From positions 127,967 to 191,966 of IMG/VR virus record IMGVR_UViG_3300046777_002520: a DNA stretch of 64,000 nt, one strand, 5' to 3'. The position numbers and the translations under genes were made by a program. Position 1 is the first letter of the stretch, and each line of letters starts with the position of its first letter. The notes under the pieces are model-generated. The model saw only the letters and a program-made list of their open reading frames with translations, ran no database searches and had not been told where the DNA came from. This document shows positions 5,634-63,964 of this stretch, piece after piece. The stretch comes from a virus.

Positions 5634-5972
5634 ATGGCTGATAGCAATTGCCTTCAAACGAAGGTGCGCAACATGAGTGGGAAGGAGGCCTTTTTCGGCT
5701 TTCTGCCTCCCCATGGCAAGCGTCTCGCTTCGGGCGAAGAATACACTTTCTTTGGTTCTCCTGAGGCCCTGTTGGCTTCTGTGACCAAGAAGCGCCAGCG
5801 CACTGCCCTGCAGAACGCTCTGGTCAGCGGCAAAGTCGTGATCGTCTCGACTCCCGCAGTCCACGCTTACGACGCCACCCTCGACGTCACCAAGACCCTT
5901 GGTGTCACGAACGGCAGCGTCACGGCTTCCGATCCCTGCTGGGGCCAATACTCCAGCTCCATCGGCAGCTAA
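5634..5972 (+). CDS. small virion protein, hypothetical
   Basis: RBS GGAGGT. Last gene before a terminator; ends YSSSIGS. Confidence 0.65.
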   Translation: MADSNCLQTKVRNMSGKEAFFGFLPPHGKRLASGEEYTFFGSPEALLASVTKKRQRTALQNALVSGKVVIVSTPAVHAYDATLDVTKTLGVTNGSVTASDPCWGQYSSSIGS

Positions 5973-5997
5973 GCTGACGGCTAAAAAAAATTCAGAG

Positions 5998-6025
5998 AGC
6001 CCACCCTTTGCAGGGTGGGCTTTTT
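5998..6025 (+). terminator. intrinsic terminator ending the head operon
   Basis: AGCCCACCCT-TTGC-AGGGTGGGCT followed by TTTT. Confidence 0.85.
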
Positions 6026-6027
6026 GC

Positions 6028-6055
6028 TTAATTGACGCAAAATAACAGGCATAAT
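6028..6055 (+). promoter_or_regulatory. cassette promoter-like motif, copy 1
   Basis: TTAATT(6028-6033)-N16-CATAAT(6050-6055), then CAGAT. Confidence 0.7.
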
Positions 6056-6118
6056 CAGATGACCGATATATAGCTGTGACAGGAGTTGCAGGTGTATCGG
6101 AAATTGAAGGAGATAGTC

Positions 6119-6361
6119 ATGAAGACTACTCTGGCCTGTGGTTCTAGGTTAGTTATTGGCACCGTTGTCAACGACTATGTCGTTGACATGCGACGGAGGC
6201 GTCGTGAGGCTCAAGAAGCCATTCTGTGGCACCTGGCCCAGAAGGGGTTACTTGAAATCGACGAGGTAATCAACCTCGTCGAGTCCAGCCGCAAGGCTGG
6301 ACCGTTCACTGGCTCTGCCATGAGGCAGGAAGCCATCGACCGCTACAAGGCGGTCGCATAA
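6119..6361 (+). CDS. small hypothetical protein, cassette 1 payload
   Basis: RBS AAGGAG then ATG 6119, 80 aa. Flanked by the promoter motif and a hairpin/T7-AGCT boundary. Confidence 0.7.
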   Translation: MKTTLACGSRLVIGTVVNDYVVDMRRRRREAQEAILWHLAQKGLLEIDEVINLVESSRKAGPFTGSAMRQEAIDRYKAVA

Positions 6362-6367
6362 CTTCAT

Positions 6368-6415
6368 AGCCCCTTAAAGCGGGGGCTTTATAAATACGCT
6401 TTTTTTAGCTATTGG
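6368..6415 (+). repeat. cassette boundary: hairpin + TTATAAATACGC + T7-AGCT-ATTGG
   Basis: AGCCCC-ttaaagcg-GGGGCT, a 12-nt spacer, then TTTTTTTAGCT at 6400-6410. Near-identical to 7130-7168. Confidence 0.7.
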
Positions 6416-6420
6416 CTGAT

Positions 6421-6448
6421 TTAATCCAAGCAACTTACAAGTCATAAT
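6421..6448 (+). promoter_or_regulatory. cassette promoter-like motif, copy 2
   Basis: TTAATC(6421-6426)-N16-CATAAT(6443-6448), then CAGAT. Confidence 0.7.
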
Positions 6449-6451
6449 CAG

Positions 6452-6589
6452 ATGCAAATCTATAATGAACTCAGTCCAGTCACCGCTGGACCACTAGAAC
6501 AAACAAGCGGTGTTTGACTCCTTGGATTCCACGCTGAATCGCGTGAAGGAGCACAGGTCCGAACCTGTGATCTAGACTTTTTTTTAGCT
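6452..6589 (+). ncRNA. candidate small structured RNA, cassette 2 payload
   Basis: No ORF over about 21 codons and no RBS-led start. Stems CTCCTT/AAGGAG enclosing CACGC/GCGTG, and CACAGGT-ccga-ACCTGTG. Ends at T8-AGCT (6578-6589). Confidence 0.45.
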
Positions 6590-47084: not shown

Positions 47085-47456
47085 TATGAATGCCAATTAG
47101 CTTTGCTACGACAGCAACAACCGTTGAGCCACGTCGGCGGTCTAGTTGCACGATAGCGCGCAGTTGGTATTACATTACCTGTAATGATTGCAGGAGGTTC
47201 TCACACGCCAGAGTTGTGAGCGGTTGCCGCTACGAGACAGCGAACGTTACCTGTGGCGCATTACACAGGAGGTACTGACGGCTACCAAAACGCAGGTCAT
47301 GCTTCGGTTGCTTCTCTATTTGCAACCGATCATGCATAGTAGAAATAGAGAGGTGTAACCCGCACTGCGTTAAATGGGGGACCGTGAAACTCGGTACTAC
47401 AAGACCAGCAGGCTGACGCATATATTGCGTCGGCTTTGCTGGTTTTGTTTTTAGCT
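47085..47456 (+). ncRNA. candidate ~370-nt structured non-coding RNA with pseudoknot
   Basis: Own promoter motif, multiple stems, loop TTCTCTATTT (47312-47321) complementary to AAATAGAGAG (47343-47352), a ~20-bp terminal hairpin (47401-47446), then T5-AGCT. Confidence 0.55.
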
Positions 47457-47466
47457 ATGGCCTGAA

Positions 47467-47494
47467 TAAATCCACACGGATTTCAGGTCATAAT
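47467..47494 (+). promoter_or_regulatory. cassette promoter-like motif, copy 5
   Basis: TAAATC(47467-47472)-N16-CATAAT(47489-47494). Confidence 0.65.
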
Positions 47495-47535
47495 CTATTG
47501 GTGTTGTATTATCTAGCCCACAGCCAGGAGGCGAC

Positions 47536-47697
47536 ATGAAAGCTATGGTAATGAAAAGCAAAGTTGTAGTCGGCAGGATTCAGACTCAATTGACCGCAAC
47601 CCAGCAGCGGCTGCTGGATTTGGGCGTGTCACTACGGCCGATTGTCTTTACCGCTAACGGCGGTAAACGGCGCTACTTGCGCCAGTTATGCAAATAA
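47536..47697 (+). CDS. 53-aa basic hypothetical protein (not in ORF track), cassette payload
   Basis: RBS AGGAGG then ATG; MKAMVMKSKVVVGRIQTQLTATQQRLLDLGVSLRPIVFTANGGKRRYLRQLCK; followed by a terminator. Confidence 0.65.
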   Translation: MKAMVMKSKVVVGRIQTQLTATQQRLLDLGVSLRPIVFTANGGKRRYLRQLCK

Positions 47698-47715
47698 GCA
47701 ATAACGAGGATTTTC

Positions 47716-47772
47716 CTCACCACCCGCATCTCCCCTAAGGAGTTGCGGGTTTGGTGGGGTTTTTCCTTAGCT
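47716..47772 (+). terminator. long imperfect hairpin + T-run, ending in TTAGCT boundary
   Basis: CTCACCA-CCCGCA-t-CTCC-cctaa-GGAG-t-TGCGGG-tt-TGGTGGG, then TTTTT and CCTTAGCTATTGG. Confidence 0.7.
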
Positions 47773-47846
47773 ATTGGAAAACTCCTGTAGGAAAGCTCCT
47801 GTAAATAAGTTAGGATAGCCCTGGGTCTTTTCAGAAAGGAACAACC

Positions 47847-48119
47847 ATGCGTATTGTCGAAGAAGCTTTTGAGCGGATCGGCCCCAAGGCCACCGTCGTT
47901 GTCGAAGCCGACACGATGGAGAAGGTGAAGAGCCTGGAAGCCCGTAATCTGGCTCTGGACTTTGCCCGAAAGAACGGGTTGTCTGTGCCAGGGTTTACTG
48001 GCGGCTCCTGGACCGAATGGGTGGACGAGACTGGAAAGGCGTTGCTTGGAGAAGACTTCAAAAACGCTTCGACTCGGTTGGTTCGGGCTTCCTATCCTGT
48101 GCAAGAGGCTGTCATCTAA
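47847..48119 (+). CDS. hypothetical protein
   Basis: RBS AAGGA; 90 aa. Confidence 0.7.
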   Translation: MRIVEEAFERIGPKATVVVEADTMEKVKSLEARNLALDFARKNGLSVPGFTGGSWTEWVDETGKALLGEDFKNASTRLVRASYPVQEAVI

Positions 48120-48883: not shown

Positions 48884-50485
48884 ATGCTCCGTAACGCTCA
48901 AGAAGTCGAGAACAAGATCCGTAACTACATCCGCAGCGGTGTTCAGTGCGTCCATCTGGTCTGCGGCGGTCAGATCAACGCTGCCGAGCAGATGCTCAAG
49001 AAGATCGCAGACAGCCTGACCCTGGACTTCAAGACCTGGGACCCAGCCAAGGGTTTCGGCACCAACAACATGATCAATCCGGTCCAGGCGCTAGAAGCCG
49101 TGGCCAGCGGTGACGGTACGGTGCAGGGCAACGCCATCGTCGCCATGCATGATCTGCACTACGACCTCGGCGCTATCCCAGCGCTGGTCAGCAGCCTGAA
49201 GCGCCTTGTCTCGATGCAGGCGTTCAACAACGGACGTCAGCGCCGTCCTCTGTTCATCCTGACCACTGGGTCCGTGATGAATCCCGACGTGATGCCTTAC
49301 GTCAAGATGCTGGAGATGGCTCTTCCCGACAAGGGCCAGCTGGCCACGGTGTTCGACAGCATTCAAGGCTCCATCCGCGACGAGTCCCGCCGACACTGCG
49401 AGCCCGAGCTGCGCCATCAGATCGTGAACAGTCTGTCTGGCTTGACCTGCCCTGACGCTGCCGACGTGCTTGCCGAGTCGTTGATGACACACGGCAAGTT
49501 CTGCGAAGAAGTCATGGATACGGTCGAGGAGGAGAAAGGTCTGCTCCTCAAGAAGTCCGAGGTGTTGACCTACATCAGCAAGAAGGAAATCATGGCCAGC
49601 AACGAGCTGGGTGGTTTCGTCGAGCTGAAGAGCTGGCTCAATCGCCGCAAGGTGGCTTACAGCGAAGAGGCCGAGCGCCTCAACCTGTCGGTCCCCAAGG
49701 GTATTGTTCTGGTCGGCGTGCCTGGTACTGGCAAGTCCGTCTGCGCCAAGGCAGTGGCAAAGCTGCTCCACTTGCCGCTTCTGAAACTCGATGTCGGCGC
49801 TCTGTTCGGCAGCCTCGTCGGTGAGTCCGAGCGTCGGACTCGCGAGGCTATTCAGGTCGCTGACAGCATGAACGGCTCGGTCCTGCTGATCGACGAGGCC
49901 GACAAGGTTCTTGGCGGCGCTGTGGACAGCACGGGCGACAGTGGCGTGACCCGCCGCATCTTCGGCCAGTTGCTGACCTGGCTGGCCGAGAAGACCAGCC
50001 GCACCTTCGTGATCATGACCATGAACCGCGTCTCTGGGATTCCTCCCGAGATGCTGCGCAAGGGTCGCTTCGACGAGATCTTCTTCGTCGATACGCCAGA
50101 TGGCGACGAGCGCCGTCAGATCTTCGAGATCCACATGCGCGCGAAGGGCATCGACCCGACCGGCTTCGACAGCCAGGATTGGGAAGAGATCATCGAGGCT
50201 TCCGAGGGCTTCGTCGGCGCTGAGATCCAGAACGCCGTCTCTGACGCCCAGCTCAACGCTTACGAGCTGGACCGTTCAAGCGAGGGCAAGTTCACCGCCG
50301 CCCAGCTGGTCAGCGAGTTGAAGCTGGTGAACCCCGTCACCAAGATCGACCCGATCAACATCGAACAGATTCGTCAGTTCGGTGCGGAGCGGGCTCGCAA
50401 CGTGTCTGGACGCAATCGCAAGATCGTCCGTCAGCATGTTCGCGCCATGGATATGACCATGGGCGATCCCAACGTCAAGCGCTAA
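48884..50485 (+). CDS. Ycf46-like AAA+ ATPase (degenerate N-terminal + active C-terminal AAA domain)
   Basis: Walker A GVPGTGKS, Walker B LLIDEADK, SRH PPEMLRKGRFDEIFFVDTP, and pore loop LFGSLVGESE. Confidence 0.9.
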   Translation: MLRNAQEVENKIRNYIRSGVQCVHLVCGGQINAAEQMLKKIADSLTLDFKTWDPAKGFGTNNMINPVQALEAVASGDGTVQGNAIVAMHDLHYDLGAIPALVSSLKRLVSMQAFNNGRQRRPLFILTTGSVMNPDVMPYVKMLEMALPDKGQLATVFDSIQGSIRDESRRHCEPELRHQIVNSLSGLTCPDAADVLAESLMTHGKFCEEVMDTVEEEKGLLLKKSEVLTYISKKEIMASNELGGFVELKSWLNRRKVAYSEEAERLNLSVPKGIVLVGVPGTGKSVCAKAVAKLLHLPLLKLDVGALFGSLVGESERRTREAIQVADSMNGSVLLIDEADKVLGGAVDSTGDSGVTRRIFGQLLTWLAEKTSRTFVIMTMNRVSGIPPEMLRKGRFDEIFFVDTPDGDERRQIFEIHMRAKGIDPTGFDSQDWEEIIEASEGFVGAEIQNAVSDAQLNAYELDRSSEGKFTAAQLVSELKLVNPVTKIDPINIEQIRQFGAERARNVSGRNRKIVRQHVRAMDMTMGDPNVKR

Positions 50486-50503
50486 TCGACTGTAGTTCTA
50501 CGT

Positions 50504-50534
50504 GGGGCGCACTCACTTCGAGTGCGCCCCTTTT
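50504..50534 (+). terminator. intrinsic terminator-like hairpin between AAA gene and next gene
   Basis: GGGGCGCACTC-acttc-GAGTGCGCCCC-TTTT. Confidence 0.8.
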
Positions 50535-50549
50535 CTGGAAAGGAATAAC

Positions 50550-51716
50550 ATGAGCACTGAAACCGAGACTCTGCCTGCTGCCCCCGCTGTTTCCGTCCCT
50601 GAAGCTCCCCGCGTCGAAGTCCCAGAACTGGACGTGTCGGAACTCAGCAGCGCGTCATCCGACGTGATGCTGCGCAGCCTGGCCAAAAACTGCGTGGCTT
50701 TGAAGGTGTCGGTGTCGGCCATCGGCTACGAGCGCCTGGTGCAGAATGCCCAGGTCTCCGTCGGTGAGCACGAGATCGCTCCAGAGTTTCTGGCAGGCGC
50801 ACGCTTCAAGGTCGTGCCAGGCAACATCAAGAATCCGCTCGGCCGCATTGCTGGCCACGCCCGACAAGTGCCTTACTCCTACGGCACGCCCTTTATCGGA
50901 GGGGCTTATCTGATTCCGATTGCGAGGGACCGACATGGAAACAGTCCAGCTCGAAAAGCTTTTAGCCGACTGGCCGAAATTCGAGGTGAATACCGAGATA
51001 AGGCTATTGAGCTCCGACCCCTCTGGGAAGCTCACGTCGCCAAAATCCAAGCCGAGTACCCGTTTGAGTACGAAGCGCTCCGACAGTACCTCCCAAACGG
51101 AGAGTCCTTCGTCGCCGCCCACACTATATCATCAATACGTTTTCCTCTGGGAGCTGGGCTTCCTGCCAATTTTCAAGAGAGGCTGGAAGAGGGGTTTGTA
51201 AAAGCCTTCCGTGGCGCTCCCGATGAGGCTTTGCTGCGCAGCCACCAGGCTGAGCTGCTGCGCATCGTGAACGAGGCGGCGGCAGACCCTGGTACGGCTT
51301 TGAGCGAAGGCGCTTCGGAAGCCTGGCTGGCTGAGGCTCAGGAGCAGACCAGTGCGGCTGTGGCGTCTGCCATCAAGGCCATGATCCAGGAACCCCTGAA
51401 GGAGTTTGCCGAGTCTCTGGCAAACATCGAGGGTATACTTGCTCGTGGCTCCAACCTGAAGAGCAGCACGATCAACAACCTCAGGTCATCGTTCGAGAAG
51501 CTCAACGGCTTTTCGTTCATGGCTCCTAACGAGCTGAAGCAGCGTCTTCGTAGCGCTGCCACAATCATCGGGGCTGTCGATATGAAAGATATCAACAGCT
51601 CGGAGAGCGCCAGCCGCGAACTGGCTGAGCACTTCAAGACCATCCGAGAGGGCATGACCTCGGAGGAGACGCACTCCGCTGTCTTCGGTCAATTCATGCG
51701 CGGACTGGACCTGTGA
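50550..51716 (+). CDS. helical hypothetical protein, possibly DUF3150-like
   Basis: RBS AAAGGA then ATG 50550. PFIGGAYLIP and ...LKSSTINNLRSSFEKLNGFSF resemble DUF3150-type proteins seen next to such ATPases (recognition by memory). Confidence 0.5.
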   Translation: MSTETETLPAAPAVSVPEAPRVEVPELDVSELSSASSDVMLRSLAKNCVALKVSVSAIGYERLVQNAQVSVGEHEIAPEFLAGARFKVVPGNIKNPLGRIAGHARQVPYSYGTPFIGGAYLIPIARDRHGNSPARKAFSRLAEIRGEYRDKAIELRPLWEAHVAKIQAEYPFEYEALRQYLPNGESFVAAHTISSIRFPLGAGLPANFQERLEEGFVKAFRGAPDEALLRSHQAELLRIVNEAAADPGTALSEGASEAWLAEAQEQTSAAVASAIKAMIQEPLKEFAESLANIEGILARGSNLKSSTINNLRSSFEKLNGFSFMAPNELKQRLRSAATIIGAVDMKDINSSESASRELAEHFKTIREGMTSEETHSAVFGQFMRGLDL

Positions 51717-51771
51717 TTTTAGGATTGTTTTGTCTTAGCGTTAACACTTTTGATTTGAAAGGATAAAGACC

Positions 51772-52140
51772 ATGTCTCACACCGCTACTGTTCAGACCCA
51801 GATCAGCAACAAAGAGATCGCCAAGAAGACCTGCGAGGAACTCGGATTCGAGTTTCTCGATGTCAAGCAGGTGAGCCTGTACCAGAGCGAGCACCGCAAT
51901 CTGTCATGCGAGTTCGCGTTCAAGCCCAAGGGTTGGAGCTATCCTGTGGCTGTCAAGGCAGACGGTTCTGCCCTGTACGACAACTACAACGGCCACTGGG
52001 GCGAGCAGAAGCACTTCGACGAGTTCCGTCAGAAATATGCAGAGAATGTCGCCCTGGATCACGCACAGCGTCACGGGTACCGCGTGATTCATCGCGGCCT
52101 GAGCCAGGACGGCAGCATCCAGCTGCGCCTGGGTCGCTGA
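51772..52140 (+). CDS. DUF1257 (Ycf35-like) family protein
   Basis: MSHTATVQTQI...ACEELG-type N-terminus and QKYA...HGYRV...QDGSIQLRL C-terminus. Confidence 0.75.
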   Translation: MSHTATVQTQISNKEIAKKTCEELGFEFLDVKQVSLYQSEHRNLSCEFAFKPKGWSYPVAVKADGSALYDNYNGHWGEQKHFDEFRQKYAENVALDHAQRHGYRVIHRGLSQDGSIQLRLGR

Positions 52141-52148
52141 CGTGATTT

Positions 52149-52480
52149 ATACGGCCATAGCCAGCGATAGGATTTTGTCGGCAGTTTGTTCAGACTGCTA
52201 CTTGGTCCACAGAGAAGTCAGGGCATGGCCATTGTCGGGTTACAAGCCGAGGGGGCGTAGTCGAGGTGTTCTTTTTCCTAGAATAGAACGCTTCCACGCC
52301 CCCTCAACTCCTACCGTTGGCGTATTCGAGACCAACACAAGCTCTCTGGAACTTGTCTGGAGAGAAGTACCTGGAACGGCCCTATACGCAGCTATAGGGC
52401 CTTGCGGGTCAGCGCTCAAGCAAGCGCTGGCCCTTAGAACCGTGGAGTATCTGAGTCAGGACTTGGACTACTCCTATACC
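52149..52480 (+). ncRNA. candidate structured RNA / hairpin-dense insert
   Basis: At least seven consecutive stems of 5-11 bp, including a 10+10 bp compound hairpin (52249-52305). Confidence 0.5.
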
Positions 52481-52522
52481 GTGTTTGTTAACAACCATAA
52501 GATCGAAGTGAGGATCAGAAAG

Positions 52523-52714
52523 ATGGCCGCAGAAATTATCGTCAGCATCAGTTCTACAGGCGACACCAAGGTTGAGGTGCAAGGTGGCAGCGGAGGCAGC
52601 TGCACCAGTCTGACCAAGGGTCTTGAGGAGGCTCTGGGTCGGACCACAGAGCAGGCTTACAAGCCTGAGTTCTACAACAAGCCCCAGGAACAACGTATTC
52701 AGAACAGGATCTAA
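52523..52714 (+). CDS. DUF2997 family protein
   Basis: IIVSISSTGDTKVEVQGGSGGSCTSLTKGLEEALG...KPEFY matches the DUF2997 pattern; ATG 52523 after GAGG. Confidence 0.75.
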   Translation: MAAEIIVSISSTGDTKVEVQGGSGGSCTSLTKGLEEALGRTTEQAYKPEFYNKPQEQRIQNRI

Positions 52715-52717
52715 ACC

Positions 52718-52987
52718 ATGCTGATCGAAGTCCGACCTGACGGCTCAATGAAGATGCTCTACGACGATTCCCTCAAGTCCCTGATGGACGAGGGCAAGAC
52801 CGAAGTCGCACGAGCGTCTGATGTTGAGCCTGACGGTAAGGGCGGTTGGACCGCCGACCTCACACGGGTCGGCGGTCCTGTTCTTGGGCCTTTCCCTCTA
52901 CGGGAGGACGCCCTGACCGCCGAAAAGGAATGGCTGTGGAACAACAGTTTCGGAGACAAGGAAGATGGTCGCAATAAACAACTATGA
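52718..52987 (+). CDS. conserved-looking hypothetical protein accompanying DUF2997
   Basis: IEVRPDG...RASDVEPDG.GGW.ADL...GGPVLGPF..R.DAL.AE..WL. Confidence 0.65.
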   Translation: MLIEVRPDGSMKMLYDDSLKSLMDEGKTEVARASDVEPDGKGGWTADLTRVGGPVLGPFPLREDALTAEKEWLWNNSFGDKEDGRNKQL

Positions 52988-53225
52988 TTCAGCCGCATCC
53001 AGGCTGATGACTTCTCAGGCTAAAACAGCCGAAGAGCTGCGCAGTACGCTTGAGGACCTGTACGGCAAAGACAACGTTTTCAGTACGACAGAAGCTACTG
53101 AAAAATTTAGCTTTCTCAGTTTCGCAGCGCCTTTGGTTGCGGTAGAACGTAAAATAGATGGGGTGAAAGGTGTTCTCGAATTCACGCATTCGCCACGATT
53201 CTACTTCAACTTTCGGAGCAACTAA
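52965..53225 (+). CDS. hypothetical protein
   Basis: 86 aa; C-terminal GVKGVLEFTHSPRFYFNF; overlaps the previous stop. Confidence 0.6.
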   Translation: MVAINNYDSAASRLMTSQAKTAEELRSTLEDLYGKDNVFSTTEATEKFSFLSFAAPLVAVERKIDGVKGVLEFTHSPRFYFNFRSN

Positions 53226-53226
53226 A

Positions 53227-53700
53227 ATGAAAGCGCGTTGGATGGAGATCAGACCACAAGACTTTGAAGCTGTTGTGGGTATGGGGGTTACTGTTCTCAA
53301 GAAAAATCCAACCAAGGTTCTTGGCTTGCTCAAGCGCTGTCTGCCAGGCGGTCCCAGGGATCACGCCGCTGTGGTAGTCGAGAACGAGGACGGCATTGTC
53401 GGATATGCTATCTACAGGCACTCGGGAGAGGCCGAGATCAAGATCAAGCAACTGGCTGTCACACCGCATTGTCGCCGTGAAGGCGCTGGCAGGACGGCCC
53501 TTAATTGGATCATCGATTGCTACGCAGCATCCAAGCGGTCAATCGTTGCCGACGTGTCTGAGAACAACTTCGCAGCCCAGAAGCTCTTTTCCTCTGTGGG
53601 GTTCAAAGCCCAGCTTGTCAGGAACAGCCGAGACGACGGCGACAAGTATCGATTCAGCTACAAAACTGCAGAGGACAAAGCGCAGAAAGAGAAAGTGTAA
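53227..53700 (+). CDS. GNAT (RimI-like) acetyltransferase
   Basis: Acetyl-CoA motif A LAVTPHCRREGAG and motif B NFAAQKLFSSVGF; ATG 53227 after GGAG. Confidence 0.8.
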   Translation: MKARWMEIRPQDFEAVVGMGVTVLKKNPTKVLGLLKRCLPGGPRDHAAVVVENEDGIVGYAIYRHSGEAEIKIKQLAVTPHCRREGAGRTALNWIIDCYAASKRSIVADVSENNFAAQKLFSSVGFKAQLVRNSRDDGDKYRFSYKTAEDKAQKEKV

Positions 53701-53930
53701 TGCGCATAACCGCCAGGCTGTATCTGGACTTCAACAAGCTGCATGACCAAAAAGAATTGATCGATAAACTTACGGCTATGCTTAATAGCAAACACGCCCA
53801 TCTGTTGAAGGGCGTGTCTGAGCTTATCGGTGAGATTCAGGAGCAGGCTGTTGACGAGAACAGCGTGCCTCCTAGAGTTGTCTATCTGACTTGTAAGCCT
53901 CAGCCATCTTCAAAAGAGTGCTCTTCTTAG
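53700..53930 (+). CDS. small hypothetical protein
   Basis: TAATG coupling to the GNAT gene; overlaps the convergent minus-strand gene by 59 bp. Confidence 0.5.
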   Translation: MRITARLYLDFNKLHDQKELIDKLTAMLNSKHAHLLKGVSELIGEIQEQAVDENSVPPRVVYLTCKPQPSSKECSS

Positions 53931-55047
53931 CTGAGGCTTCCTTACCGAACGGCTTGACATTGGAGGCTTCGGCAAGCCGTTCAAACAGCCGAGCATCGCC
54001 ACGAGGCAGCGTTCGCAATTCTTCAGCAAGCTTCTCGGCGTCCAGCATCAGGCCACCGGCAGAAACCCTTTCTACAAACTCTTCGCCCAGGATGTCCTTC
54101 AACCCGTCAACGGGAAGGTTCTCCAGGTCGGATTTCTTGTAGAAGCTGCCAGTGGTCAGCTGGACGCTCTCGTTCGAGAAGTCGCTAGCCTGCTTGACCG
54201 TGAACTGGAACAGGTCTTCAGGCTTGCCAATCGACGTGATCTTCTGCAACTTGTACTCGCGGTCGATCTTGTCGATCAGCGTGGCGATCTTGGTCATGCT
54301 GCCCATGTCGTGGGCATACTCCTTGTTGACCAGCAGGGCTTCAGCCGTCTTGGCCAGTGTGCGCTGGACATCCAGGTCCTTGCCCAGACGACGCAGTACC
54401 ATGGCTCGCTTGTAGAGCAGCTCGGCTGCGTTCTTTGCGCTGCCCAAGGCGGCTCCTGCCTGCTTGTAGAGATAGGTCTTGTCCGACTCGGACAGGTTCT
54501 CGGACAGTCCTGCCTTGAGGATCTTCTGGGCGATCTTCACCCTGTCGGAGTAAACAAAGTCGTCGCGGTACTTCTGCAGGTAGTCGCTGGCCGCTTTGAC
54601 TTCGTGAGCGTTGCGCAGGGGCATGTGGCGCTCTTTGGTGCCGTTGTCGTAGGCGACGACAAAAGCGAACTTCTCGTCAGGCAGGGTTTCAAGCGTATCG
54701 GCATTCAAAGCGGCGTGCTTTTCAAGCAGCTGGTCGATATGCCGCTTGATACCGAAAAAGCTAGCTGCCTTGACAATACGCTCGCGTATGTGGGAAGCTT
54801 TCTTGCCGAGACTTCCTTCGTTATCCAGAAGATACATCATGGATACGTAGGTGGCAGGTCCCGTATGACACGGGAAAGAAAGGGTGGTGGGATCGGCAAA
54901 AGCTGTCGGATTCTTTTCTTCAGCCGTATAGCTTATAGCTGACGAAGAAGCAGCCTTAACAAACTCTGGCGCTCCGTACAACTTAACCAGCCTGTGTAGG
55001 GCTTGGCCGTTAGCATCACCCTGCTGGTCGAAACGGATATTTGTCAT
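53872..55047 (-). CDS. K-x-A-rich hypothetical protein, probably internal virion protein
   Basis: RBS GAGGT on the minus strand about 10 nt before ATG (CAT 55045-55047). Repeated VKAASS, VKAASF, VKAASD, VKQASD and GKEASA motifs as in head proteins. Confidence 0.7.
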   Translation of the reverse strand: MTNIRFDQQGDANGQALHRLVKLYGAPEFVKAASSSAISYTAEEKNPTAFADPTTLSFPCHTGPATYVSMMYLLDNEGSLGKKASHIRERIVKAASFFGIKRHIDQLLEKHAALNADTLETLPDEKFAFVVAYDNGTKERHMPLRNAHEVKAASDYLQKYRDDFVYSDRVKIAQKILKAGLSENLSESDKTYLYKQAGAALGSAKNAAELLYKRAMVLRRLGKDLDVQRTLAKTAEALLVNKEYAHDMGSMTKIATLIDKIDREYKLQKITSIGKPEDLFQFTVKQASDFSNESVQLTTGSFYKKSDLENLPVDGLKDILGEEFVERVSAGGLMLDAEKLAEELRTLPRGDARLFERLAEASNVKPFGKEASAKKSTLLKMAEAYKSDRQL

Positions 55048-63892: not shown

Positions 63893-63964
63893 GCCACTGT
63901 AGCTCAACGGTAGAGCTCTGGTTTTGTAAACCAGGGGTTGAGGGTTCGAGTCCCTCCGGTGGCT
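63893..63964 (+). tRNA. trnT: tRNA-Thr(TGT), CCA not encoded
   Basis: Acceptor GCCACTG/CGGTGGC, D arm GCTC-AACGGTA-GAGC, anticodon arm CTGGT-TTTGTAA-ACCAG, T arm GAGGG-TTCGAGT-CCCTC. Confidence 0.95.

Follow-up and report, generated by a model that had tools for sequence, protein, structure and literature searches.

An uncultured-phage gene fused in frame to DUF2997 combines a conserved coding sequence with strong mRNA structure

In E. coli operons, mRNA structure extending over an entire open reading frame (ORF) predicts how efficiently that frame is translated and isolates neighboring ORFs (Burkhardt et al., 2017; PMC5318159), and stable structures just past stop codons, termed ribosome termination structures (RTSs), govern re-initiation (Chemla et al., 2020; PMC7518266). 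In cyanobacteria and plastids, Ycf46-like AAA ATPases, Ycf35, and DUF2997 share gene neighborhoods, including the duf2997-ycf35-fed7 cluster (PMC4284462). We analyzed a locus in which the same three families form one co-oriented module, in a 64,000-nt stretch of viral DNA (hereafter the window) that makes up the final 64 kb of a 192-kb virus record in IMG/VR (IMGVR_UViG_3300046777_002520, positions 127,967 to 191,966; estimated completeness 93%). Between the genes for DUF1257, which is Ycf35-like, and DUF2997 lies a hairpin-packed segment, positions 52141-52522, that a preliminary description of the window read as an inserted structured RNA element. On balance, we favor a reading in which this segment is a coding gene, here called X, that is fused to DUF2997 and carries gene-wide mRNA structure that would throttle and couple its translation.

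Positions 52142-52522 are almost certainly the coding sequence of a domain of ~125 residues, X, that is fused in frame to DUF2997. The preliminary description had already remarked on the open frame, which we confirmed: 127 stop-free codons run from the GTG at 52142 up to the DUF2997 ATG at 52523. Several additional results support a coding function. First, we compared X with its counterpart in the closest relative, L010, which is one of four near-identical IMG/VR contigs (L010-L013) whose flanking-gene proteins are ~80-85% identical to those of the window. Changes by codon position were 0.21/0.13/0.43 and the ratio of nonsynonymous to synonymous substitution (dN/dS) was 0.18, with dS about 1.0, values indistinguishable from those of the flanking genes; a second pair of relatives, L036 and L037, gave a dN/dS of 0.185. 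All four near-identical contigs have the same arrangement, with the X frame open, the GTG at the same place, and one 3-nt indel. Second, a search of 5.8 billion proteins recovered the full 187-190-residue ORF in three clusters (P0001, P0002, and P0003; 93, 74, and 60% identity, respectively, over residues 1-124), which differ by in-frame indels and conservative replacements. Conservation of the 190-residue protein among homologs was one of the findings that the preliminary description had named as counting against an RNA element. Third, a profile built from the N-terminal part of X and searched against 1.84 billion representatives matched nine proteins at E <= 0.001, among them six stand-alone proteins of 90-143 residues and one second, distant DUF2997 fusion (P0036). 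The weakest match (P0040; 512 residues, E 1.4e-4) was left out of the X family, which grew to about 15 clusters in a second profile search; scans of viral contigs with P0033, P0035, and P0036 gave no matches. Finally, in three syntenic phage contigs with an AAA protein ~59% identical to that of the window (L036, L037, and L038), X is a separate gene of 128-134 residues, with an ATG 0-1 nt past the DUF1257 stop and a stop of its own that overlaps the DUF2997 ATG in another frame.

The position of the X start is conserved, with GTG in the window and L010 and ATG in L036-L038. We favor the GTG at 52142 as the true start because the ATG-started relatives are homologous and because the N-terminal strand and helix of the structural model described below are confidently predicted. 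In the database, this genome's own gene call is a 170-residue protein (P0004), as a start at the TTG of codon 21 would give.

X was modeled with AF2 (AlphaFold2) on an alignment of 16 sequences, giving an alpha/beta fold with a predicted local distance difference test (pLDDT) score of 84.4 and a predicted template-modeling (pTM) score of 0.75. This X-only model supersedes a poor model of the full 190-residue fusion (pLDDT 45), which was calculated from a shallow alignment. X has no match in Pfam or PHROG, and a search of the 16 X sequences against Pfam at E values up to 1 gave one chance match only. A sequence-profile search of X against the PDB found no match, and comparison of the X model with the PDB by Foldseek found nothing convincing (best E 0.04). 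Likewise, a VIA-wide fold search gave a best Z of 5.2, which is within noise, a protein atlas search returned only plant and methyltransferase rows at chance level, and a BFVD fold search found one unnamed viral protein (A0A7S5REL3; TM 0.62), which is not convincing. A candidate zinc site in X (C16-x2-C19-x3-H23...H52) was dropped because conservation of C16, H23, and H52 does not extend beyond the fused clade. The C-terminus of X (52442-52513) has, in relatives, a helix followed by GY-x-Y-x-V...D-G-S-I-x-I and resembles the DUF1257 C-terminus, GYRV...DGSIQLRLG (52060-52137). X may derive from an old tandem duplication of DUF1257, although hhalign assigned the pair a probability of only 4.9% (pairwise E 0.008) and their similarity is limited to this C-terminal motif, which resembles GY-x-V...DGSI-x-L.

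The X family is rare, with all members found in one clade of uncultured ~190-kb phages. Among 50,697 deposited phage genomes, neither the region nor the fused protein had a blastn or tblastn match, and relatives of the AAA ATPase were at or below 34% identity, which is why we regard the X-bearing clade as uncultured. The preliminary description held that a DUF1257-DUF2997 pair is split at this locus, and relatives outside the clade bear this out: the two genes are directly adjacent in 23 more distant viral loci, with X absent from the fetched flanks. X is therefore a clade-specific gene that was added between the pair. The gene order of the X-bearing clade is Ycf46-like AAA ATPase, DUF3150-like, DUF1257, X, DUF2997, orf89; the succession AAA-DUF3150-DUF1257-X-DUF2997 is limited to this clade. 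The order in L002-L009 is DUF1257-DUF2997-AAA, and in L018-L032 DUF2997 is followed directly by DUF1257, a cyanobacteria-like order.

The segment is also strongly structured. Every stem listed in the preliminary description was found where it had been placed, including the GGCCAT/ATGGCC stem (52153-58 with 52225-30) and the GCAGT/ACTGC hairpin (52181-98). The minimum free energy (MFE) of the full 382-nt segment was -151.1 kcal/mol, compared with -120.1 +/- 5.5 kcal/mol for 100 dinucleotide shuffles (z -5.63; no shuffle was as good), so the folding energy does fall below that of shuffled controls, the comparison that the preliminary description had proposed. The antisense strand gave z -4.75. 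Adjusted for GC content, the MFE of the segment was 2.3-2.8 standard deviations (sd) under the regression and among the 15 lowest residuals of 498 sliding windows. The intergenic cassette regions at 5889-6530 and 47105-47990 contain several of the most stable GC-adjusted folds of the window, with the lowest residuals (-3.3 to -4.3 sd) at 5889-6145 and residuals of -2.2 to -3.0 sd at 47105-47617. An Rfam 15 scan of the whole window at gathering scores matched only a tRNA at 63893 and nothing in the segment. A permissive scan of 51900-52800 (E up to 10) gave four chance-level matches, with E 0.3-2.8 and 18-21 bits where the gathering scores are 45-90; three were to eukaryotic microRNA or small nucleolar RNA models. 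A terminator scan found no terminator-like site, defined as a G+C-rich hairpin followed by a U run, within 52141-52522. Perfect hairpins of at least 9 bp are unevenly distributed, with eight of ~29 distinct ones in the 64-kb window falling within the 3.5 kb from 50500 to 54000. Counting nested variants, the window has 43, compared with 9-28 in five Markov simulations (9-13 in four of them).

We conclude that the mRNA structure of X is very probably under selection. Codon shuffles, which preserve both the protein and its codon usage, were run in the five lineages with DNA (window, L010, L036, L037, and L038), about three of which are independent. For X in the window, z was -5.4 over the 127 codons (-5.38 against 100 shuffles) and -4.9 over the first 124; values for X in L010, L036, L037, and L038 were -4.3, -4.1, -3.9, and -4.3, respectively. 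Dinucleotide shuffles of X in the window and relatives gave z values of -5.6, -4.8, -5.7, and -4.6. The small downstream gene orf89 was similarly extreme (window -4.4, L010 -6.6, L036 -2.4, L037 -5.3, L038 -5.1), whereas the DUF2997 cistron between them was not (window -1.0, L010 -0.6, L036 +0.1, L037 -2.4, L038 -2.2). Thus, in five lineages, two highly structured cistrons bracket an unstructured one. DUF1257 gave -2.3 in the window, -1.45 in L036, -1.9 in L037, and -1.2 in L038, orf86 and the GNAT gene of the window gave -0.6 and +1.4, and 28 random coding segments of the window had a mean of -1.15 (sd 1.16; minimum -4.53). Moreover, in all five lineages the sense strand of X is more stable than the antisense strand by 12-30 kcal/mol and has more G-U pairs, which points to pairing at the level of mRNA rather than DNA. 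The preliminary description was therefore right that the RNA structure is real, and that structure is conserved in five lineages and favors the sense strand; the segment nevertheless encodes a protein and is not non-coding.

Table 1. Features of the X locus, with positions in the window.
Feature	Positions	Strand	Basis or remark
Ycf46-like AAA ATPase	48884-50485	+	Co-oriented module
DUF3150-like gene	50502-51716	+	Start GTG 50502
DUF1257 (Ycf35-like)	51772..52140	+	Pfam PF06868, 28.6 bits vs cutoff 22.2; C-terminal half of profile covered
X::DUF2997 fused ORF, 190 aa, GTG start	52142..52714	+	ORF list; full length kept in P0001, P0002, P0003
X domain, 127 codons (the "insert" of the preliminary description)	52142..52522	+	Substitution pattern, homologs, AF2 model
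5' domain (~75 nt) closed by stem P1	52151..52232	+	ACGGCCA 52151-57 with TGGCCAT 52226-32; holds hairpin 52181-98
Long hairpin, perfect 10-bp outer helix GAGGGGGCGT/ACGCCCCCTC	52249-58 / 52296-305	+	Encloses second 10-bp helix with two G-U pairs
Hairpin CTCTCTGGA/TCTGGAGAG	52342..52364	+	MFE; L010 retains hairpin in shifted register
Perfect 9-bp hairpin GGCCCTATA/TATAGGGCC	52378..52401	+	Over codons ..LYAAIG.. (..Y-x-x-x-I-G..)
11-bp hairpin GGGTCAGCGCT/AGCGCTGGCCC	52406..52433	+	L010 retains, one double-sided change G-C to U-A
Hairpin GGAGTATCTGAGT/ACTTGGACTACTCC	52444..52474	+	MFE; weakened in L010
Internal Shine-Dalgarno GAGGA 52510-14 and ATG 52523-25 of DUF2997	52510..52525	+	Sequence; retained inside fused ORF
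DUF2997 domain, 63 aa from internal ATG	52523..52714	+	Pfam PF11211, E 1e-15
orf89	52718..52987	+	Codon-shuffle z; perfect 12-bp hairpin 52848-78
orf86	52965-53225	+	Small ORF after orf89

The individual helices of X (Table 1) are conserved to different degrees. P1, which pairs ACGGCC with GGCCGU, is present in all five lineages, and its 5' arm starts 11 nt past the DUF1257 stop. Within P1, threonine is encoded by ACG in five of five lineages (usage 0.06-0.28) and proline by CCG in four of five (usage 0.06-0.21). This retention of the stem by rare synonymous codons supports selection for the structure. The P1 domain places stable structure directly downstream of the stop, with local z values of -1.6 to -3.7 over the five lineages. 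The long hairpin sits over codons for ..G-x-G-x-G..P-x-x-P.. and is locally significant in codon shuffles of the window (z -4.3), L010 (-4.9), and L038 (-4.8), but not of L036 or L037. In L038, it has another stem sequence at the same alignment columns; all seven outer pairs are preserved, and at two of them both partners have changed. At the site of the 9-bp hairpin, local z was -3.5 in the window, -4.6 in L036, and -7.7 in L037, where the homologous codons of the latter two form longer stems of different sequence; this hairpin is absent in L038. Protein length at the hairpin positions is the same in lineages with and without a given hairpin. Hence, the hairpins are not insertions but evolved in place by substitution. 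There is no second copy of the segment or of its arms in the 192-kb genome and no repeat family that covers the segment. A selfish palindromic insert, like a miniature inverted-repeat transposable element, was discounted for its single copy and lack of length polymorphism, and a dispersed repeat or mobile element was dropped as well.

Fusion of X to DUF2997 has left an apparent second start within the longer frame. The C-terminal 63 residues of the fused ORF match PF11211 with 55-58 bits (cutoff 24.1) over positions 1-47 of the 47-position profile. The internal Shine-Dalgarno (SD) sequence and ATG have an equivalent in L010 (AAGGA plus ATG), Met128 is invariant across all fused proteins, the predicted probability of being unpaired for positions -15 to -1 of this start is 0.73, and 63-residue gene calls from the internal ATG occur in the same protein clusters. 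From these sequence features, we infer that both long and short products are made from the fused locus. In a tree, the fusions from the window, P0001, L010, and P0003 group as one well-supported clade (100/100). P0036 is on a long, unresolved branch, so a second independent fusion may have occurred. In the lineage of the window, the X stop is gone and X continues in frame into DUF2997, with the strong internal SD and ATG retained. Gene fusions of the Rosetta-stone kind are well known, as are nested in-frame genes with an internal start. X and DUF2997 resemble the former in being separate in L036-L038 and fused in the window, L010, P0003, and P0036, and they resemble the latter in the retained internal SD and ATG; unlike in established nested genes, the long and short products here are predicted from the sequence. 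Their fusion hints that X could be an accessory subunit of the ATPase module, with DUF2997 as its binding partner.

What might the structure be for? We tentatively propose, with a little less than even confidence, that its purpose is to throttle the translation of X and couple it to that of the gene upstream. X lacks a strong SD; the most it has is a weakly SD-like GGG or AGG from the glycine codon of DUF1257. In all five loci, the X start region has the lowest predicted accessibility of the operon cistrons (0.15-0.32), compared with 0.38-0.71 for DUF2997 and 0.34-0.45 for DUF1257. The DUF1257 stop and the X start are 0-1 base apart; in the window, the stop is TGA 52138-40 and the GTG begins one base further, at 52142. 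A buried, weak GTG reached mainly by ribosomes finishing DUF1257 would yield little X-DUF2997 fusion, and the open internal start would yield more of the free 63-residue DUF2997. The dense hairpins would then be a selected, gene-wide structure of the sense strand that keeps X translation low and dependent on translation of DUF1257 and that insulates X from the unstructured DUF2997 cistron. orf89 appears to follow the same design, with structure that may hold its output low relative to that of DUF2997. Translational control and control of stoichiometry were the softer options of the preliminary description; the layout fits both, and control itself is proposed on the basis of predicted accessibility and structure.

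We read the hairpins as a device for throttling and coupling because the layout of the X start matches precedents for both ORF-wide structure and re-initiation. As in the operons of Burkhardt et al. (2017; PMC5318159), adjacent cistrons at this locus have distinct levels of ORF-wide structure, and X pairs mostly within its own ORF (a share of 0.93 in the predicted fold of the window). The phage structure is far more extreme, however, with z values of about -4 to -5 against shuffles encoding the same protein, and it is conserved over lineages with only ~35% protein identity, partly through amino-acid changes on both arms of stems. P1 is likewise similar to an RTS (Chemla et al., 2020; PMC7518266) in being a stable, conserved structure 11 nt past a stop, with the next start 0-1 nt away. 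The RTS was described as a local element, whereas P1 opens a long series of hairpins that occupies the ORF downstream.

Several observations weigh against this interpretation. Other genes in the relatives also have low codon-shuffle z values (-3.5 and -3.9 for the DUF3150-like gene and -2.8 for the AAA gene) and one random coding segment of the window reached -4.5, so excess structure is not unique to X. Hence, the excess is strong and gene-specific, though not exclusive to X and orf89. With the exception of P1, the hairpins keep their positions only in part, and dS of X is not reduced, meaning that any constraint on synonymous sites is local rather than global. The DNA comparison comprises the five lineages, ~three of them independent. 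Finally, the accessibility values and folds are thermodynamic predictions.

Among other explanations, the one that survives best is a dual-function RNA, in which the segment encodes X and its RNA also acts beyond tuning its own translation, for example by directing processing by RNase III or RNase E, or by affecting stability, so that the two halves of the operon have different half-lives, or as a scaffold or ligand for the AAA, DUF1257, or DUF2997 proteins. In strength, the structure equals that seen in candidate non-coding RNAs of the same window, and it covers the whole ORF rather than the start alone, its stems persist through amino-acid changes on both arms, and structured X and orf89 flank unstructured DUF2997 in five lineages. 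In addition, 52249-52305 forms a composite helix of ~22 bp, and RNase III substrates usually have helices of about this length. We nevertheless consider a dual-function RNA unlikely, as no Rfam family matches and as only P1 occurs in all lineages while other hairpins come and go, a pattern more in keeping with a bulk property than with a specific fold. Bacterial examples of dual function, SgrS/SgrT and RNAIII/hld among them, are small regulatory RNAs that carry short ORFs and base-pair with known targets. X shares with them the combination of a conserved fold and an ORF in one segment but differs in that its ORF fills the structure. A stronger version, in which X and orf89 are dual-purpose, selection on the fold steers protein evolution so that amino acids encoded on paired arms change together, and the RNA has its own role in the module, seems improbable to us; possible roles include a processing or stability bracket around DUF2997 and an RNA partner for the module's proteins.

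Alternatively, the hairpins could be a functionless by-product, arising from template switching that perfects quasi-palindromes or remaining from in-frame selfish palindromic elements. Perfect stems of at least 9 bp are indeed 2-3 times more common in the window than in Markov simulations and cluster at 50.5-54 kb, and several of the stems are perfect palindromes, as events at the DNA level would give. Rickettsia genes carry in-frame palindromic elements, which resemble X in that hairpin-forming sequence is translated. X differs from these elements in having neither insertion-type length differences between lineages with and without a hairpin nor other copies of the segment or its arms in the 192-kb genome. 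Neutral origin also fits poorly with a sense-strand advantage of 12-30 kcal/mol from G-U pairs in five lineages and with an excess that is conserved and specific to certain genes (X and orf89, not DUF2997, orf86, or GNAT). We give this explanation only a slim chance.

A non-coding structured RNA between DUF1257 and DUF2997 (a ribozyme, an intron-like element, or a small RNA), with an open frame that is incidental, would account for the strong folding z-scores and for the direct adjacency of the flanking genes in 23 distant viral loci. This explanation, which was among the options of the preliminary description, is close to refuted and retains very little credence: X is under purifying selection, as seen in its codon-position pattern and a dN/dS of ~0.18 in two independent pairs; its ORF is kept in about 15 protein clusters, stand-alone and fused, with in-frame indels and, in three lineages, a stop of its own; its predicted protein fold is confident; and the segment has chance-level Rfam matches only and no internal terminator. 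An element acting at the DNA level, with single-strand hairpins for replication, packaging, or recombination inside the gene, would explain the antisense folding beyond shuffles (z -4.75), which is expected wherever inverted repeats exist, but is hardly credible given the sense-strand advantage in energy and G-U content in five lineages and the lack of a GC-skew switch or repeat family at the segment.

The X-DUF2997 ORF lies in a run of co-oriented genes that encode the AAA ATPase, DUF3150-like protein, DUF1257, X, DUF2997, orf89, orf86, and GNAT (Table 1). Compared with the cyanobacterial and plastid neighborhoods (PMC4284462), the phage clade adds the DUF3150-like gene, X, and orf89, with X placed between the DUF1257-DUF2997 pair and, here, fused to DUF2997. 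Neither Pfam nor PHROG has a match for orf89, whose mRNA shows as great an excess of structure as that of X in five lineages; the 12-bp hairpin of orf89 (52848-52878) was flagged by the terminator scan despite lying inside the ORF. At 50504-50530, starting 2 nt inside the DUF3150-like gene (GTG 50502), there is a perfect, G+C-rich 11-bp hairpin with TTTTCT after it. This hairpin might clamp the start region or serve as a terminator for the AAA gene.

We regard the X locus as a possible variant of translational control already known from operons, and its accessory family is new. The locus illustrates that ordinary coding sequence can be packed with hairpins, have a folding z of -5.6, and match nothing in the databases, a question that the substitution patterns of relatives settle. 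Both X and orf89 keep gene-wide mRNA structure in lineages that share only about one-third of their protein sequence, which makes them compact natural examples well suited to asking whether structure of this kind determines protein ratios in an operon. For the Ycf46-like ATPase/Ycf35/DUF2997 module, X is a new protein family with a confident predicted fold, and because X and DUF2997 are fused in at least one clade, we predict that the two are in direct contact.

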